A stretch of 63,344 nucleotides of DNA, the filler included, from Squatina squatina (taxonomy: Eukaryota): the NCBI GenBank assembly GCA_031763465.1. It is 4 parts of 4 records of this genome, joined end to end, with 100 filler letters (N's around TTAATTAATTAA, not from the genome) between each part and the next. Parts side by side here need not be neighbours in the genome. Positions count along the whole stretch, not along the records: positions 48,919 to 63,344 come from JARFOE010000013.1; 3 more parts are not named here. One strand, given 5' to 3'. Shown piece by piece: positions 27,814 through 63,344 of this stretch. The translations under genes were made by a program, and so were the position numbers. The notes under the pieces were generated by a model, which saw only the letters and a list, made by a program, of their open reading frames with translations, was not told the origin of the DNA and searched no databases. How positions within the stretch are numbered: position 1 is the stretch's first letter; each line of letters begins with the position of its first letter.

Positions 27814-27962
27814 TTCCAATGTCAGGTCGGAGTTTCTTGTCATATTCCTTCAGCAAATGGTTTAAAATCTTGGTCGTATCTCTATCCTGCAATTTTGGAG
27901 CCAGCACCCACTTCTGGTTGACTGTGAGGTCTTCGTACTCATCCTCCTCAATTTTTCTCGAA
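27814..27962 (-). CDS. GABRG3: GABA-A receptor gamma-3 subunit exon 2 (149 bp)
   Basis: cttacAG acceptor, [49 protein letters not shown], donor GTGAGT. Resembles GABRG3 [23 protein letters not shown]. Confidence 0.95.
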
Positions 27963-34939: not shown

Positions 34940-35137
34940 TTAATTTGGAGTAATGGCTTCTTTTATAACCGGCTCTCTGTTCAGATACGTTGCCCAGTAA
35001 ACTAAATTAAAGATTCCAAAAAGAACAGGAAACACAACCCTCGCCATTTTGTCAATTTTGCTGACGCTGTTGTAAGTCTTTTTACTTTCAGCAGCCTTTT
35101 CCTCTGCCCGCATTTGCACAGTCGTACTCTTTGAAAT
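34940..35137 (-). CDS. GABRA5: GABA-A receptor alpha-5 subunit last coding exon (TM4 and C-terminus), 5' part in gap
   Basis: [65 protein letters not shown], with TAA at 34940-34942. Lies tandemly upstream of GABRG3 as in the vertebrate beta3-alpha5-gamma3 cluster. Not in the supplied ORF frame. Confidence 0.93.
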
Positions 35138-49015: not shown

Positions 49016-49276
<261 letters not shown>

Positions 49277-51745: not shown

Positions 51746-51770
51746 AGAAATAAAAGTAAAACTTCCTTAC

Positions 51771-51942
51771 CAAGCTCCACATCCTGGTCATCTGTAATAA
51801 TAAGAATAATGTTGGGTCTGATGTTTCTCCGGTCTCGCTGCACACGTCCTTTAAACCGCTGTGGTTTTAAGCTTGAGCCGAGGACTCCTATCAATTCAGC
51901 ATTCAGCACGACCAAAAGCAGAATAAGTGGTGAGAGTCTCAT
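51771..51942 (-). CDS. SULF1: Extracellular heparan sulfate 6-O-endosulfatase, first coding exon (172 coding bp; exon probably starts at 52014)
   Basis: [57 protein letters not shown] plus G/GTAAGG donor. The 57-aa length and VLNAELIG signal favour SULF1 over SULF2. ttacAG acceptor at 52015. Confidence 0.85.
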
Positions 51943-52807
51943 TATGTCAGCTTGTTTGAGACCACAATAAGGAAACAAGCTTTTCTTTGGTTTCACCGTC
52001 TCTTACCAAGTGATCTGTAATTAAAGTGGGACTAATTAGAAGAGTAAGCTTGAATAAAATGAAACTTATGAATGACATGAAGAGGTTAATAGCATCTTAA
52101 AATGAAGACATTTTCTGGAGTTTCAAGCTTTTTTAACCACAAAAAGAGTTGTCCTTCAAAGTGAACATTTTATTAAAGAATAGCTGTGATGTGAGATGCT
52201 GTATAAAAAAAAAACACCACAATAAACAAGAAACAGCAATATCTATTACAGAAAATCTTTGTCAGGCTACAGTGACACTGAAACATAGCAACGACCAGTA
52301 TAGAGCTACACCAGAGATTTCAGCTTCTCCTAAGACCAAGATGAAGCCATGAAATAGGTTACATATGTTTTAGATGAATTAACTAAAAATATTCACAATG
52401 ATTCACTGAACAATTCTCTTTTTTTATCCAAACGCCTCAATAAGTATCACTTTTATGAACCTATAGCTATAGCTATGATCTTACAATTAAATACTTAATA
52501 AGCGGTGGTAACTGGAATTTTCAGGTTTTTGATATTCAGCGTCAGAACACCGGCTTTGCACCTGCACACCATCAGTCCTTTCAGTGGAGCACAAATAACT
52601 TGTTTCATGGCTCGAGTCCAATCACGCAGTGGTGAACATTCTGAAACTACCTTTCCCACAAGAAACACATCGAGTGACAGTGATCGCCTTTCTCCACATT
52701 AGTGAAACTTCCAACTGTACATCACCCAGCAACGATCCAGTCAATATGAACTCATAATGCAATGAACTTTTGCTGAGCTCCTGTCATCTTATGGTGATGT
52801 GCAGACT

Positions 52808-53334: not shown

Positions 53335-53550
53335 CCGCTCTATTCTCTCCCCAAACAGCGGCAGCAATAGAAACACTGCCACAGGAAAATCAATGTCGAA
53401 AGACTCAAAGATCCTGCGAAGAAAGCCCAACTCAGCCAACGCCTCACGACAAACCTGACAATGCTCAATGAATTGGAGCCGCAGAGTGCCCACAGTTTGT
53501 GGTCTGCCCTTAAGTCTACCATAATCAGTGCCTGTGAAGAGACTCTTGGG
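53335..53550 (+). mobile_element. RTE LINE internal fragment
   Basis: RKINVERLKDP...WSALKSTIISACEETLG, typical of the region between the endonuclease and RT. Confidence 0.65.
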
Positions 53551-55089
53551 GACCCAATTGGAGAGCGCCGGAACAGGTCTTGCTCAGTGTGCGCTGGCCC
53601 CGGAGCGATGTGTTATAACCTGGAATTGGGGACTTTGACTCATTTCCAGTTCAGCGCAACGTGGCAATGCTAATGAAGTGTTGCCATGGTGCTTATCCCG
53701 CGCTGACCCCGTGAATTCTAGGGAGTGCAGGCTTGCATTGGTAGCGTGGCTAGTGCCTTAAAGGGGAGGGCCACTGAAGGGAGGACCCTAATTTCCTACA
53801 ACGTGATGCTGCAAAAATTAGAAAATGGGCTTTTTTGGGTCAGAATGGCTCAAACCCTGTGGAATGTTACTGACTTCAACAAATTGAACAGGCTCAGACC
53901 TCCTGGGGTCGAATGCTTTGTAATACTTTAACACCTTNNNNNNNNNNNNNNNNNNNNNNNNNNNNNNNNNNNNNNNNNNNNNNNNNNNNNNNNNNNNNNN
54001 NNNNNNNNNNNNNNNNNNNNNNNNNNNNNNNNNNNNNNNNNNNNNNNNNNNNNNNNNNNNNNNNNNNNNNNNNNNNNNNNNNNNNNNNNNNNNNNNNNNN
54101 NNNNNNNNNNNNNNNNNNNNNNNNNNNNNNNNNNNNNNNNNNNNNNNNNNNNNNNNNNNNNNNNNNNNNNNNNNNNAAAGAAGTATTTTCAGCATAAATT
54201 TGGACTGCAAAAAAAGCCCAGCAAATGTCAGTACAGTACTCACAAATTACCAAGATGCTGAGAAAACTAAGTATAAGATCCTTCAATAACACTTACTCTA
54301 AGAAAATAAACCAGGCCTCTGGAAATGAAAATCCTCAATCGCTGGGTGAGCTGGGCCTCACTGCCTGCATTTAGTGATGTACAGCAAACTTTGCAGACAT
54401 TGTTGACCCAACTACTGCAGTTATTCAGACTGCATTGAGTAAACACTGGCACCAATGACTTTAAATAAACCCTCACAGTATGTAGTTGCAAATGCCAGAC
54501 AATCATACCTCAGTGACAATGCGAAAGAAGGGAACTTCATTGCCAAAGCAACTGGCTTTAGGTTTGCGAATTCAGCCATACAGTTCTGCAGCCTGAAGCA
54601 TCATTTTTGAGCTGGAGAAGAGCCCGAGATACCTGGGATGAAGTTGTTCAGCTGTGAGAGACGAAGATCCAGATCACTCATCTTCAAGCATGGACAATTC
54701 TCCATTCAGTGCTGACCTTTTCAAACCTGACATCCCCACCCCGACTAGTTTCCTGCTGCAGTAGGAAATAAAGCTGCAGAATTAATACTGACAAAGTGTT
54801 GTGCTTGTCTTCAGGGACAAGAATGTCAGTATTTTTGTGCGGGATTCTGAGACAGCCTTCTGGCACTTCACAAATCTCTGAAACCCATTCCCTTAAATGA
54901 CAGCAGAAACACTGATGGCTTGTCAAACAATGGCCTTGCAGCAAGGAAATTTACTCAAAACCAAGTCAGTGATGGACGGATAACAGNNNNNNNNNNNNNN
55001 NNNNNNNNNNNNNNNNNNNNNNNNNNNNNNNNNNNNNNNNNNNNNNNNNNNNNNNNNNNNNNNNNNNNNNNNNNNNNNNNNNNNNNTTA

Positions 55090-55780
55090 AAAACATAGGA
55101 ACAGAAGAAATAGGAAAAGGGGTAGGCTATATGACTCCTGGAGCCTGCTCTGCCATTCAATGAGATCACGGCTGATCTTCTACTTCAACTCCCCTTTCCC
55201 ACTTTATTCCCATATCTCTTGATTCCCTTAGTGTCCAAAAATCTATCGATCGCAATCTTGAATAAACTCAATAACTGAGTAACCACAGCCCTCTGTGGAA
55301 ATAAATTTCTCCTCATCTTAGTCCTAAATAGCTGACCCCTTATCTGGAGACTATGAACTCAATTTCTAGAATGTCCAGCCAGGTGAGACATACCTTTCAG
55401 CATCTACCCTTTCAAACCCTCAAAGAACTTAATGTGTTTCAATAAGGTCACCTTTCATTCTTCTAAACTCAATAGAATATAAGCTCATTCTACTCAACCT
55501 CTCCTCATAACACAACCCTCTCTTTGCAAGAATCAACCTATTGAACTTTTGTTGCACTCCCTCTAAGGCAAGTATATCCTTCCTTAGGTAAGGAGACCAA
55601 AACTGTACACAGTGCTCCTGGTGCGGTCTCACCAAGACCCTATATAATTGCAGCAAAACTTCCTTACTCTTATACTGCAAACCCACTGCAATAAAGGTAT
55701 TTGCTTACCTAATTGCTTGCTGTACCTGCATGTTAACTTTCTGTAATTCATGTACAAGAGCACCTAAAACCCTCTGAATA
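55090..55780 (-). mobile_element. CR1 LINE 3' fragment
   Basis: YKSKEVLLQLYRVLVRPHQEHCVQFWSPYLRKDILALEGVQ...RRMKGDLIET plus 3' tail. Confidence 0.9.
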
Positions 55781-57557
55781 GCAACAACTACTAGACAGTT
55801 AATAACTGGTTAAAATAAACATCTTTACAAAATATAATTCACATTTTTGAAATACCAGACTCCAAAGAGTGCAACATTTTCTGAGTCACCACAACAATAA
55901 CATCAAGGAACTGGATAAAAACATGAAAATTTCATCAGCTGATATCACAATACACAGGGAGTTTTCAAAACTCCTCTTACCCAAATACAAAAGTAATGAT
56001 TCGAATTCATGATCAAAGTTAGAATGTATTGTTTTAAAGAAGCACTTCAAATCTGAATCTGTACAGTGATTAACATGGCAAGTCTTGCAAATAGAAGGTC
56101 TACTTACTGTGTTGAGTGGTTAGTGCAGCAAGGCTGCTTATTAAAAGTCACTACAAAACACAAAGCCATCACAACGGTTTCAATTTCTATCCTCAGTATT
56201 GGCTGCTGGAATTAAGCCACAGCATGAACTCAAAGCAGCAGTTAACATTGGGTAGGGTACAGCAAATAGTAGGACAGATACAGGAAGGAGATATCTAATA
56301 CAATTCTTTCTCCTCGAGCTTCAATAACGCAAATACNNNNNNNNNNAGTGGCCCACAAGGTCATTAATAATGCCACACTTTACTATCTAGCTGTCATCGC
56401 AGTATTCCATACTTTCATTTAGTCCTCACTGCTTTATCAAAGCAGCAGTTCCTTGCACAGGCACGAACGGCTGCCCCTTCGAATGATTTCCAACTGGAGC
56501 CAGTCAACATCATGTAAAATGCAGCTATATACAGCTATTACGTGGCTTCCTATTACCTGCTCTTTTCAAGTGCAATCCTATTCCACAGTATCTGCACCCA
56601 ATTAAGTCAGTTTGCTTTTTTGGCCATCTGCAAGTGCTTCCTGAATTCAGCACTGTTTATCTGATCTGCTACAGTGGCATATTTCTTAAGTATCCATTTC
56701 CTTCCTGTGTACAGGGATTTTCACGGCACAAGGCTGTGAGATTAGCAAATAAGAAAGTGAATCACACTGAACTGGGGTAGAAGTTTTACAAAAACAATGT
56801 TTTTCTCAAACAACAAACGTGGACACTTGAAGTAGAGATGATTGCTGAGTTTGAGCTAAACCCCAATGTTAAAAAGTCAGATTTGCATTGATCTGACACC
56901 CATATTTCAAGGTTCAAATTTAAACTATTTCAGATTTGGAGGTCACTCTCCCTTTTTGCTTGTTTATTCCCTACGGCTTGTAGCTCCACCCCAGCTAACA
57001 GTATTTCTTTCTGTCCTATCACAAGGTTTCCTACACTTGCAGTGAATAGTTACCATGTGCAGCCTGACACAGTAACAAATGCACAATTTTTTTTAAGTAT
57101 ACTATCTTATTTTTAATATTTTATTTCCAATAGTCTAATAATTTCAAAAAGAAGGCACGTTTCCATGGCTGATCCCTGGCAGTCTTATGGTGAATATGTA
57201 GGATAAATGTTCATGTCCAGTTAGTCCAGTAGAGTGGTGGTGATGGTATCACCAGGCAGCAAGGAAGTGCTGGGGATGGATGTCTAATTCAAGCTGATTT
57301 TGTGTTGGGCACTATGTACTGCTGGTGCCAAAGTGGGGTGTACATATTACATTTGAGTTGTCACATCAAACTGCAAGTTAAAAAGCCAGCAACAGACAGA
57401 ATACCAGCTTAAACAGGCATAAACAAATTAGAGAAAAAAAGTTTTGCCAAACATCTTGTTATTGAAGTCAGTGTCCCTTTAAATGCCCAGGTCTGGTAAA
57501 AGTTACTCGATTGTTGTTTGTTAAAGCTCTACGCTGAACAATGACCAATATCCTTAC

Positions 57558-57694: not shown

Positions 57695-58715
57695 CTGTAA
57701 ATAGTCACATTTGACATATGTTAGGCAAAATTGATACTCTAAATGGTTCAAACAGAAAGCAAAATTGCATTTTGCAGTTGTGTCTTCGAGAAAAGTAGCC
57801 AAACGTTGATTTGCTTCAGTTACTCATTCCCTAGATGGAAATCCCAAGTTCACTGTGAAGAACTACTGATGAGTGGCTTATGGGACTTGTTTAACCATCA
57901 CCAAATTTGCCCAAATAAGGCTCCAAGGACAATGGCAAGGGCAGCGGCCATATGCACAGTACAAAGTAAGACAGAGGTTGACTTCTTTATAATAGAAGTA
58001 CAGACAGATAAGTCATTTACTGTGGTGAACAAGAAAGTGAAGATCAGAGATAAGACAGCAAAGGTAGATTTAGGTGACTTAGACAGGGAAAAAAATTTCA
58101 TTCACCCTACTTGTTGCATGTAGAAAGCTCTTCTTTCTTAACAGTGGCGNNNNNNNNNNNNNNNNNNNNNNNNNNNNNNNNNNNNNNNNNNNNNNNNNNN
58201 NNNNNNNNNNNNNNNNNNNNNNNNNNNNNNNNNNNNNNNNNNNNNNNNNTACCAATTTGCTACCCCCGCACGAACCCCTCAAAATTTACACCAGAACAGA
58301 CCAAGCAAACCCCCCACCCCCCAACCTTTTTCATCCAATCACAACAGCTTAATTAAAGCTTATATTTTGTTTCCGTGGATCAATAATCAACACAATTAAT
58401 GACAATAATTGAAGATATCCAACCAGTCAGGGCTCACTGAAATTTAAAAATTACATTTTATCCATTCACAATAATGCAAAGAAAATACAATACATGCAAA
58501 AATGCAAACAAAACGACAAAATTCTGGAAACACATTAATCAGTATCTGTGGAGAAAACAGGCAAGTTGACATTTCTGGTGCTGACCCTTCAGAACTACAT
58601 TTTCTCTTTGTTTCAGATTTCCAGCATCTGTAGTATTTTTTTTATTTTATATAAATATATTCTATTTGTTCTCCAATCGCCCAAATATGAATTTATACAT
58701 CTCATCTCATTAGAA

Positions 58716-59932
58716 TCACATGGTATGAGTAGACAGTGCAAACCAACCTTCTTCTTTCAATCTTTCTGGCTTCATTCTTTGAGTAACAGGTGTCCTGTTT
58801 CCATCACCTTTGTCCAGATATAGCAAGGAACTAGTTGTACTAGCATTATCTGTAGATCTATTTCTGTTTATTTTGCTAGCAGGGGAAGGTGTGGTGCCTG
58901 TGGAAGAGTCCAATCCATTGGGCAGCGGGATCAACACTTCCAATGTTCTGTTGCCAGTTCCTGTCCATATACCCTCAGGTGGAATAGGAGAAATAGGTGG
59001 TGAGGCAGAATCACCATAAACTTGTCTCTGCTGTTCAATCAAGTTCAAAAGTTTGCTGCGTGCTTCGGCACTCTGACGGTTCAGCTCAGTGATCCTCTGC
59101 TGAAGACTTTCAGAAGTGCTGGGAATGGTCTTTTCAATTTGCGGTGCAGGATTAGATAATTTACCTATTTTGAACTGATCGAGATGGGCTTTGAGAGCAG
59201 AATTCTGCAACTGTAGCTCAGTAATTTGAGATAACATCGCTTCATGTTTAAGCCACTCGTCCAAAGATAGATCTTGACTGCCTTCAGCTTCTGCCTTGCT
59301 CTCCTTTGTTCTCAGAATGCATGTTTCGGTGTCATCAACAGCTCCTGATTGTTGCACTGGGTGCATCTGAGGCAAATTAATAACAGGCAAAGTGACATTC
59401 GAGCTCATATGTCCTTCATTAACATTCCAAAACTTCTGCTGGGCAAGATCCTCGTAATCTTGCAGCTGGTTTTGGTTTTGTTTTGTCAAGTATTCTGTAG
59501 AGTCTTTTTCTCCTTGTAGTACAACTTGTGGCACTGAAGCTTCCTTATGAATTTGTAAATGATGAGCATCATTTGATTCCATTGATACATTATTAGGCAG
59601 AGGCCTTTCTTGAAACGAATGAAGTGTAGTTTGTGATCCAGTACCTACTTGGCTGTTTCTTTGTCTTGGGGGTGAAAGCAATACAGCAGGGCCAAATAGA
59701 TGTTCAGGTAAACTCTGACCTCTTCTAGCCTTTTCTAATAGATTCCCCTTGTATTGATATGCACAGGGCTGTTTTTTTACCAAACTTTCTAAAAGCTCCT
59801 TTCCAATGTTTGGTACAGTCCTTAAAATAGGTGTGTTTACTTTATCTGGGTTAGCGCAAATATGTAAACTCTCTCCTTCCACTGCCGGCTCCCTAACTTC
59901 ATGAGCAATGTTTTGTCTTGGCTTTGGTTCAG
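58716..59932 (-). CDS. SPICE1: SPICE1 (spindle and centriole associated protein 1) C-terminal ~400 aa, intronless; probable retrocopy, 5' end in gap
   Basis: Open frame containing LLSPPRQ, ITELQLQNSALKAH, RITELNRQSAEARSKLLNLIEQQR, SPPISPI, RTLEVLIP and ending EEGWFALSTHTM*. Matches the SPICE1 C-terminus ([24 protein letters not shown]...EEGWFALSTHVS). Confidence 0.9.
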
Positions 59933-61429
59933 NNNNNNNNNNNNNNNNNNNNNNNNNNNNNNNNNNNNNNNNNNNNNNNNNNNNNNNNNNNNNNNNNNNN
60001 NNNNNNNNNNNNNNNNNNNNNNNNNNNNNNNNTATCAAAAAGCCATGTCCCTAAAATGTCTTATGATGTTTCTATTGTTCTGTGACGGTTACCCTATGGA
60101 TCGTCAATCATGGAAAAATCACGAATAAAGCTTTGTAAGTTTGTGTACCATCAGTGTCTATGTGTCTTTCGGAGAGTTTGATGACTATTTAAAACAGTTA
60201 ACCAGTTTGTATCTAGTGTTAGGTTTTTGCATTATATAGTATTTCACCTCTATCTTTCTATTTCTGTGCATTATTTTATCTCAAATAACTGGACAGTAGT
60301 TTTAGCCTGTATGCAGTGGTCTAACATTGTGATATTTTCTATTGTTTGAGGTAACAGATGAATGCAGCGGGGATCTTGTGTCTTCTCCAGTAAGGAATTA
60401 GGGTTAATTGTTAGTCCTGGGTTACACTTACCCAAATTTGACAGAAAATAAAATTGTAGCTTTCAGTTCATTGTATAGTAATGAGAAGCAGGAACCTTGG
60501 CAGCTTCCAAAAGCAGAATGCAAGACCATGACAAGGTTCCTGCTTCTCATTATTGTTCAATTATCTCTACTGGAAATTGCACATGTACGGTATCAAGTGA
60601 GGACAAGATCAGGCTTTGCTGTGATGCCCTCCACAATAAAATAGCTTGCCAAAACACTCTTCCCATGAAGAATTGATAATGGAGGGTAACAGTGCCCATG
60701 GAACAGCATCCCAGAAAAATCCAACACCTTTAGTAGAGGGAAAAAGGGGGAGGAGGGAAAATTGGAAAAAAAAACAAGGTCCAGACTATTTAGAAAAGGC
60801 AGGGAGAGCTAATCCAATTTATTACTAGAATGCAGACCCCCATCAGGGCCAACATGTTTCACTATCTCCAGTGGTATAATGGGTGACATTTAAGGATACT
60901 GCAGCTTAAGCTGTGGCTGCTGCAAATCCCATTGGCCATGGCATTGCACGTTGACATGGTGCTTTGTTTGAATGTCCCAATCTATTGAGAACATTGAGCA
61001 GTCAATACTGCCAATGTTCACTGAGTGGATTTGTCCTAAGGACCTGTCAACAGGAATTATTTTCCCTAACAACAGAGCTCACGTTGTGAAGGTCACGGGG
61101 GGTTATGACCACATGAACTGTGTTATACACTCTCGAGTCTGGCAGTGTGTCATTTTCTCCATTAAAAATACTTCAGTTTCAAAACTTATGGCTTCTTGCA
61201 GAAACATTTGTGTGTATTTTCATTTCCCAGCAAAAGCATGACTTGACAATATTTGTTTCAGGAAGTATTGACAAGTGGAACTCAAAAACTTCTGTGGCAA
61301 AAAAACAGTACTGCATACCATATCTTCAGATACCAAGGTAGAAGGAGATTAGTCAAGTATACACTGGTCATTAACCAAGACTCAGATGAAAAAGCTGAAG
61401 TTATTTGCAAGCATCTGTGATGTAAACTC

Positions 61430-61655: not shown

Positions 61656-61755
61656 NNNNNNNNNNNNNNNNNNNNNNNNNNNNNNNNNNNNNNNNNNNNN
61701 NNNNNNNNNNNNNNNNNNNNNNNNNNNNNNNNNNNNNNNNNNNNNNNNNNNNNNN

Positions 61756-62280
61756 TTTGTTAAAATCCATGATATACTCTTCCATTGATTAACAATCCAT
61801 TTTCTGAAACCTATCAAATTCTGACCATGCCTCATAGGCATTTAACAAGTCATTGTTTTTTGTAGATTTCATCCAGGAATTCTATTCGAAGGTCAAAGCC
61901 TTCATCGTTATCCAACTGATCTTCATCTATCTCAGAAAATATCTTGTTTCTGATTTTACTTCATTCAGGGAGTGACAATGCCAAGGCATTGTTTTCTCTT
62001 TGGTAGTGTCCACATGTCAACCTCCTTCTTCCACTGGTCATATGGTTCAAATACCGAGAACATCGGAGGGTAGACATACCTCGATGATATAAACTTGCTT
62101 TCTGCCATTTTTCACAATGGCCACTAGGCTTTCAAGTTTTATGTCCCCCAAAAAATACTAGTTTCTAACCTCCACCTTTAGGCAACCATTCTCTGCTACC
62201 ATGTAAAAATCAGATAGCCAGGTGGTGAAGAATGGAATACACAGCCTAGCCCTCAGTCGCTTACAAGCTTTTATTTAGAG
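61756..62280 (-). mobile_element. Ty1/Copia (GalEa-like) LTR retrotransposon 5' remnant: partial LTR, PBS, degenerate gag
   Basis: LTR ends in CA at 62202 with AATAAA upstream. PBS TGGTAGCAGAGAATGGTT (62184-62201) is complementary to the tRNA-iMet 3' end. gag from ATG 62108 reads MAESK...YDQWKKEVDMW...LPKRKQ...AYEAWSEFDRF...SMEEYIMDFNK with frameshifts and stops. Confidence 0.8.
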
Positions 62281-63344
62281 AGAAAGAAAAGACTGGCATT
62301 TATATAGCACCTTTCACGACCACCGGACGTCACAAAGTGCTTTACAGCCAATGAAGTACTTTTGGAGTGTCCTCTCTCTCACGCAGACCCTCGGGTTCGA
62401 GGATAACTTGCTTCCACTCCGGAGTTGTGGGTTCTGAGGTGGNNNNNNNNNNNNNNNNNNNNNNNNNNNNNNNNNNNNNNNNNNNNNNNNNNNNNNNNNN
62501 NNNNNNNNNNNNNNNNNNNNNNNNNNNNNNNNNNNNNNNNNNATATGCCCTAAACTCCCCTGAATCCCTTTAAACTTGAAGTCCAATAAGGTCCATAAAA
62601 CCACTTGAACTTTGCTTTTATAGGCTACGATGTCAACTAGCGGCCTTGGTTAAATTACACCCTTTCTACTCAGAACCAACCATCAATAGATTGGGACATC
62701 CCTGCTTTATAGGTGGCACTATGGAACAGTGTAATTTATTAGAAAATACATCTTTTAGTTGCCAAGTGCAATATTTCTAATAATTTTAAACTCTGCTCCC
62801 CATCTGCTACTACCAACAACTTGTTTATTGAACAATTCTGAATGACTTCCTTGTGTGCACTCAGAGGTTCAATATACAGTTTAGAAACTTTTTGTAACAG
62901 TTAACGATGCTAGAAACAGATGTCATCAAGCCTTTTAGCTCTCTAATGAGGCAGGAAATGAGCAGCAGTATAAGCACAGCTACTTGTAAATGGATGAGCA
63001 TCCATCTGCAGTTAATAATAATCAGTCTGTTTCACCAGCTACCAATGCTGCACGTGCAAACTCAGTCCTCAGGTGTCAGCTTACACTTGTTCAAAGCAGA
63101 ATGGAACGGCGTGTAACAATTTATATGAATAAGCTGCAGTTCAGCATGGTCGTTTCAAACATGATCTGTGTTTCCATGGCAACGCATATTACCATTTTTT
63201 GCAACTCACCAAGGCAAAGATATCACTGCAAAAACAAAGATACAGATGTGAGAATTGTATTCCAGAAGTGCTTGCCACCATAATTTGACGAACTTGCCGC
63301 AGTGGGCCAACATGGCAGCCAATTTTCACTACAGGTTACATCTA

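Follow-up and report, generated by a model that had tools for sequence, protein, structure and literature searches.

The replacement of a parent gene by its own retrogene is a known kind of process, and the locus described here, from Squatina squatina, raises the question of whether SPICE1, a gene for a centriole and spindle protein, has been replaced in this way in sharks and rays. Such a case would test, in nature, whether a retrocopy that depends on borrowed regulation is able to replace a gene central to cell division. We analysed a window of 63,344 nucleotides (the whole stretch of DNA, along which all positions are counted), a fragmented assembly of 46 pieces with a median of about 1 kb and with runs of N between them, mostly 100-N placeholders. 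The reading that we hold to be likely is that the window carries a real, functional and ancient intronless SPICE1 beside SULF1, an orphan retrogene dating from the shark-ray stem.

The open reading frame and its identity

The minus strand holds an intronless coding sequence for the C-terminal half of SPICE1 (58716..59930), comprising 404 stop-free codons at 59930-58719 and a TGA at 58718-58716. Its 5' end is cut by an N gap, the frame extending into the 100-N gap at 59933-60032. From base composition, the chance of such an open frame is about 8e-12, and the longest open reading frame (ORF) among 2000 shuffles was 198 aa, against 404 codons here; the second-longest N-free open stretch of the window is 209 aa. 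The best protein matches are shark and ray SPICE1 proteins, with identities of 82% to sawshark, 79% to sevengill and 75% to basking shark, followed by rays at about 60% and chimaera at 53%, while bony vertebrates score much lower. With sawshark SPICE1 the ORF pairs nearly end to end, over residues 444-847, and all gaps are in frame.

A Pfam search of the ORF, which represents the C-terminal half only, gave no significant match, PF15678 included; this family is listed on the full-length SPICE1 relatives. A tblastn search with the sawshark protein found no match to residues 1-443 anywhere in the window, and the placeholder gap at 59933..60032 is where the absent 5' half of the coding sequence, about 440 codons with a start predicted to be GC-rich, would presumably lie. 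The preliminary description, made from the sequence of the stretch, had proposed more than 400 stop-free codons with SPICE1 C-terminal identity, and the 404 codons at 82% identity to sawshark agree with it. Its term "intact" applies to the 3' half and goes too far beyond it, as residues 1-443 with the start codon lie outside the window; likewise, the end it gave at 59932 is right in location and two bases out of frame, the true frame starting at 59930.

In a quick tree, whose branching within sharks is not relied on, 21 elasmobranch SPICE1 sequences including the window form one clade (SH-aLRT 100) that is sister to chimaera and has one member per species; three further, redundant records were omitted (another isoform from sawshark, another catshark entry and a protein from the Logan skate). 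Judged by sequence, the ORF is the C-terminal half of a SPICE1 ortholog. In the bamboo and epaulette sharks, which sit on long branches, a large segment has been deleted in frame from the N-terminal half of the protein.

Position beside SULF1

Two SULF1 coding exons were located in the window, also on the minus strand: the first at 51769..52014 (acceptor at 52014, ATG at 51942, coding part 51942-51769) and the second, a coding match to residues 57-139, at 49016..49264. No SULF1 exons beyond residue 139 were found in the window. The ORF and these exons (51942-51769 and 49264-49016) thus share a strand, as had been described.

The scaffold by itself cannot prove a link between SPICE1 and SULF1 because gaps separate its pieces. 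Linkage was judged from contigs of equal length and from accession order in public records, not from coordinates, and by these measures the two genes are linked in 9/9 sharks and rays. Equal-length contigs were found in all eight comparable cases (basking shark, sevengill, both catsharks, whale shark, Atlantic stingray, thorny skate and Rhinoraja), and consecutive accessions in basking shark (XP_078396486/487), in both assemblies of the cloudy catshark (GCB74042/41, on one 690-kb scaffold, and XP_072323701/702) and, in GenBank, in the brownbanded bamboo shark C. punctatum (GCC38120/21). The synteny with SULF1 on which the preliminary description depended is therefore present throughout these species. 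In the three outgroups, on the other hand, SPICE1 and SULF1 lie on separate chromosomes of differing size: 81,177,816 vs 125,603,275 in the chimaera Callorhinchus, 813,524,174 vs 1,916,691,190 in lungfish, and 484,004,196 vs 347,033,364 in the frog Rhinoderma. As the genes are linked in elasmobranchs and unlinked in the outgroups, the move is most simply dated to the elasmobranch stem.

We also considered a scaffolding artefact as the source of the SPICE1-SULF1 link; it is ruled out by the linkage in other elasmobranchs together with the sawshark splice path described below.

Loss of introns across the 3' half

Splice junctions of relatives were read from differences between annotated isoforms of the same species, which are predicted annotations, rather than from exon maps. 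Loggerhead turtle isoforms, in which 75 residues are skipped, mark junctions at ORF residues of about 26 and 101; a junction at ORF residues 256-264 is marked by an optional block of 37 residues in axolotl and by single-residue shifts in gar and bowfin; a shortened leopard isoform marks one at residue 324, and a single-residue shift in emu one at residue 387. The window DNA continues in frame through all of these roughly five positions marked by six bony vertebrates. By these isoform records, several exons make up this region in ray-finned fish, amphibians, reptiles, birds and mammals; because the ORF runs uninterrupted across the junctions of other vertebrates, it is not an ancestral large exon. 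The contention that introns were lost relative to other vertebrates therefore stands, the non-mammalian bony vertebrates being spliced here as well. A large ancestral terminal exon, the candidate that would have made intron loss unnecessary, is ruled out by the junctions in gar, bowfin, axolotl, turtle, emu and leopard.

The 5' half of the gene

Intron loss in the 3' half could also come about if the whole SPICE1 gene had moved to SULF1 as DNA and had then lost its 3' introns through recombination with a partial cDNA, keeping those of the 5' half. We regard this as unlikely, although the window does display the 3' half only and cDNA-mediated intron loss is 3'-biased; in addition, whale shark SPICE1 is four residues short close to one of the ancestral junctions, possibly because an intron was annotated there. 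The scheme calls for two rare events, against a single one for retroposition, and two features of the 5' half weigh against it, namely the isoform records and the amino-acid composition.

An NCBI isoform suffix is attached to SPICE1 in 1/20 elasmobranch species, as compared with 52/63 bony-vertebrate species (hand count among the matches listed), which leaves 19/20 elasmobranchs without SPICE1 isoforms. The single exception is sawshark, where the isoforms diverge at the read-through tail and nowhere else. SULF1 isoforms occur in six of the eight elasmobranch species with an NCBI-named SULF1.

The content of glycine, alanine, arginine and proline (G/A/R/P) in the N-terminal part of SPICE1 reaches 0.40 in 19 elasmobranchs, against 0.26 for chimaera and 0.27 for 20 bony vertebrates; the ranges overlap slightly, the highest bony-vertebrate value (0.373) lying above the lowest elasmobranch value (0.366). 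The shift is seen across successive blocks numbered on the emu protein: elasmobranchs, bony vertebrates and chimaera have 0.56, 0.27 and 0.31 in block 49-96, 0.35, 0.24 and 0.24 in block 97-171, and 0.30, 0.19 and 0.12 in block 172-252, respectively. Changes toward G/A/R/P outnumber the reverse by 24 to 5 in the N-terminal part, as against 57 to 55 elsewhere in the protein. A GC-type shift extending over several ancestral 5' exon blocks, as in contiguous DNA, would be expected if former exons had been fused within one CpG island. Taken together, isoform names and composition hint indirectly that the 5' half may also be a single coding exon. A GC-rich character could moreover explain the absence of this half from the fragmented assembly.

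SPICE1 in chimaera

Chimaera SPICE1 lacks exactly the block that is skipped as one exon in stork and owl isoforms and that elasmobranchs have kept. This clean, exon-sized loss implies that an intron-bearing SPICE1 outlived the chimaera split, as would be expected had retroposition taken place in the elasmobranch stem. It thereby counts against the possibility that the introns were already lost in the common ancestor of cartilaginous fish, or on two independent occasions, such that the chimaera gene would itself be intronless and the SULF1 position would reflect a later move or a separate insertion. This possibility, which we rate as very unlikely, draws on chimaera SPICE1 records, none of which includes splice isoforms, despite the many models recorded for chimaera SULF1, and it could accommodate the missing block if the chimaera gene were a separate retrocopy made from an mRNA that had skipped this exon. 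It fits poorly with the chimaera protein being without the 5' G/A/R/P shift and with its gene being unlinked to SULF1. The newer Callorhinchus annotation divides SPICE1 into two parts where there seems to be a frameshift, close to residue 464.

Copy number, constraint and function

Copy number was counted from protein records, in which clusters are shown by one representative. No second elasmobranch SPICE1 was found among the best 120 of 434 matches (708-2020 aa) or among 34 matches of 222-707 aa. One SPICE1 protein per elasmobranch species, combined with a drop in scores from 381 bits in chimaera to 160 in paddlefish, suggests loss of the parent, and on these protein records the multi-exon SPICE1 was probably lost in sharks and rays. 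That this is instead an ordinary functional retrogene whose multi-exon parent persists in sharks and rays, unannotated or very divergent, is the least probable of the alternatives and remote in our estimation, for while the absence is read from protein records (best 120 of 434), each of the 20 annotated elasmobranch species has one gene, and a parent should score near chimaera, where nothing lies between 381 and 160 bits among those 120.

The retained copy shows the marks of selection. The window and stingray agree at 69/73 of the columns that bony vertebrates conserve, compared with 71/145 of the variable ones (Fisher p 1e-12; 355/404 ORF columns used), and by this comparison the ORF is under strong protein-level constraint. 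According to the accessible part of PMC6589576, human SPICE1 residues 444-855 do not localise alone, yet they strengthen spindle targeting, support the control of centriole number and carry Aurora kinase sites. We assume, by orthology, that the shark half has the same centriole and spindle role as in human.

The proposal of a functional retrogene in the preliminary description thus survives for an intronless and constrained 3' half; what has to be given up is a recent or species-specific origin, the ORF being an ortholog common to the 20 elasmobranch species seen. The two options it had offered, a SPICE1 copy within the SULF1 5' region and a replaced parent gene, are probably both true. A young pseudogene is ruled out by tree position and protein-level constraint.

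The proposed history

The orphan retrogene that we favour would have arisen as follows. Ancestral SPICE1 would have been multi-exon in this region, as indicated by bony-vertebrate isoforms and, for the chondrichthyan ancestor, by the exon-sized deletion in chimaera. A LINE-type reverse transcriptase, the presumed agent, would have copied a spliced SPICE1 mRNA, and the copy would have been inserted upstream of the SULF1 coding exons once chimaeras had split off but before sharks and rays diverged, a timing taken from the linkage. Its 5' end may have come to lie within a GC-rich, CpG-island-like promoter, to judge from amino-acid composition. Selection would then have kept the copy as a centriole and spindle protein, the constraint being measured and the function taken from orthology, and the original multi-exon gene would have been lost, as the protein records suggest. 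Finally, a donor in the last SPICE1 codons could splice into SULF1 leader exons, as predicted by the sawshark annotation and by matching sites in the window. Neither a poly(A) remnant nor a target-site duplication could be recognised at the locus, where the sole downstream A-run (58643) abuts a high-copy repeat and the 5' end falls in a gap.

The interval from the chimaera split to the shark-ray split spans roughly 400 to 270 million years ago. Placed phylogenetically between these splits, SPICE1 would represent an orphan retrogene of great age outside mammals, and the SPICE1-SULF1 insertion would constitute a rare genomic character uniting sharks and rays.

Predicted splicing between SPICE1 and SULF1

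A GT splice donor lies in the last SPICE1 codons (58742..58748, minus strand; exon end 58748, GT at 58747-58746), and its use would remove the conserved C-terminal WFAL motif. Both annotated sawshark SPICE1 isoforms depart from the conserved sequence just before WFAL, at the donor position. The 21-residue tail of sawshark isoform X1, a predicted model from this one species and the evidence for read-through, matches a path through the window at 18/21 residues with correct phase at both junctions. This path leads from the SPICE1 donor to a 43-nt exon at 56150-56108 (56108..56150, minus strand, with an AG acceptor and a GTAAGT donor), a putative SULF1 5' UTR exon that forms the middle exon of the SPICE1 read-through isoform, and on to the SULF1 start-codon exon with its acceptor at 52014. 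The order of SPICE1, the small exon and the SULF1 coding exon is the same in sawshark and in the window, and the sawshark predicted transcript joins them. No convincing match in the window was found for the tail of sawshark isoform X2 (best score 32, vs 62 for isoform X1) or for a variant SPICE1 C-terminus in zebra shark (best score 37, vs 62).

The read-through SPICE1 frame would end at a stop at 51995-51993, 50 nt ahead of the SULF1 ATG at 51942. A stop with many junctions downstream normally triggers nonsense-mediated decay, and the read-through RNA would probably be a minor, decay-prone form. A 1013-nt contig from a sequencing run of a relative (run X2, by our guess RNA) is colinear with 58325-59335 and unspliced through the donor; as it continues past the donor to 58325, the normal C-terminus with its own 3' UTR is apparently made too. 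The likely 3' UTR of this unspliced form occupies 58325..58715 on the minus strand and includes a high-copy repeat at about 58530-58640, marked by very high depth in bin 58453-58686.

More speculatively, the retrocopy may have rewired the front of SULF1, with its GC-rich promoter driving read-through RNAs into the SULF1 leader exons in all sharks and rays, SPICE1 functioning as a very large upstream ORF, or as an alternative first exon, for this heparan-sulfate-editing enzyme, and splicing serving to switch the C-terminal motif off, with chimaera perhaps carrying an independent, exon-skipped retrocopy. We put this forward tentatively and consider it rather doubtful. Should the read-through RNA prove both real and conserved, elasmobranchs would regulate SULF1 in a different way from the other vertebrates.

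Sequencing runs over the locus

Shares of 0.05-0.11 of the stretch were matched by 20 listed runs, none of them recorded as RNA, and four of the 22 listed runs (X1, X2, X6 and X21) were compared with the window. Run X2 has a depth of 6-9 over the SPICE1 ORF and zero on single-copy intron bins that are covered by the DNA run X6. In run X6 itself (55% of the run read, with a filter applied) the flanks are covered and the ORF has a depth of 0-3; in the runs compared, no genomic DNA of a relative spanned the ORF. Run X1 contributed a single 209-nt piece within the ORF with one difference, and run X21 matched on repeats only.

Comparison with known retrogenes

Orphan retrogenes have been described as 25 human candidates (PMC3548309) and as 10 mammalian families, 9/10 of them with CpG-island promoters (PMC4772013), as far as the available parts of these sources tell. 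The features given there are shared by SPICE1 of the window, which is intronless compared with its orthologs, relocated, intact in its 3' frame and constrained, with no parent found; the CpG-island promoters of the mammalian orphans likewise fit the GC-rich 5' end proposed for SPICE1 (PMC4772013, in the part available). Unlike the mammalian cases in that part of PMC4772013, elasmobranch SPICE1 belongs to cartilaginous fish, is large (about 850 aa) and has a parent whose loss is read from protein records.

The same portion of PMC4772013 also reports chimeric retrocopies formed with host genes, with 13 cases in human and 14 in mouse, for example mouse Taf9 in Ak6. SPICE1 resembles these in lying in the SULF1 5' region on the same strand and in sharing exons by splicing, according to the predicted model of one species. 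The cases published in that portion borrow upstream host exons, whereas the last codons of SPICE1 would splice into downstream SULF1 leader exons. Compared with SPICE1 / CCDC52 (PF15678) itself, the window holds a clear ortholog of the C-terminal half whose gene structure and locus differ, with no sign of a new protein function.

A literature search, whose scope lay outside supplements and most subscription journals, found no report of an intronless or retrogene SPICE1, and a retrocopy table could list the gene; judged by title and start of abstract, nothing was found on the evolution of SPICE1-SULF1 or on the locus.

Other features of the window

Exons of GABA-A receptor genes lie further along the minus strand, with a last exon at about 34945-35137 (Pfam Neur_chan_memb) and an N-terminal exon at about 27820-27930, which we take to be GABRA5 and GABRG3, in an order that fits their cluster. 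The last exon is about 14 kb beyond the second SULF1 coding exon (49016 to 35137). Between the two, pieces that are unrelated or heavily truncated have probably been joined in the scaffold, and the adjacency of SULF1 and the GABA receptor genes is not to be trusted.

Decayed fragments that, by translation, we take to be retroelement-like are located at 61756-62442, 57743-58123, 53371-53673 and 55429-55704, and read depth is high at 61729-62430, over the first of these. RFX drives ciliary genes, and a perfect RFX X-box-like palindrome is present at 63170-63183 as the sole such site in the window, with 0.03 chance matches expected for a pattern that was chosen after the site had been noticed. 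The site lies in single-copy DNA that is conserved in a relative, upstream of SPICE1 in scaffold order.
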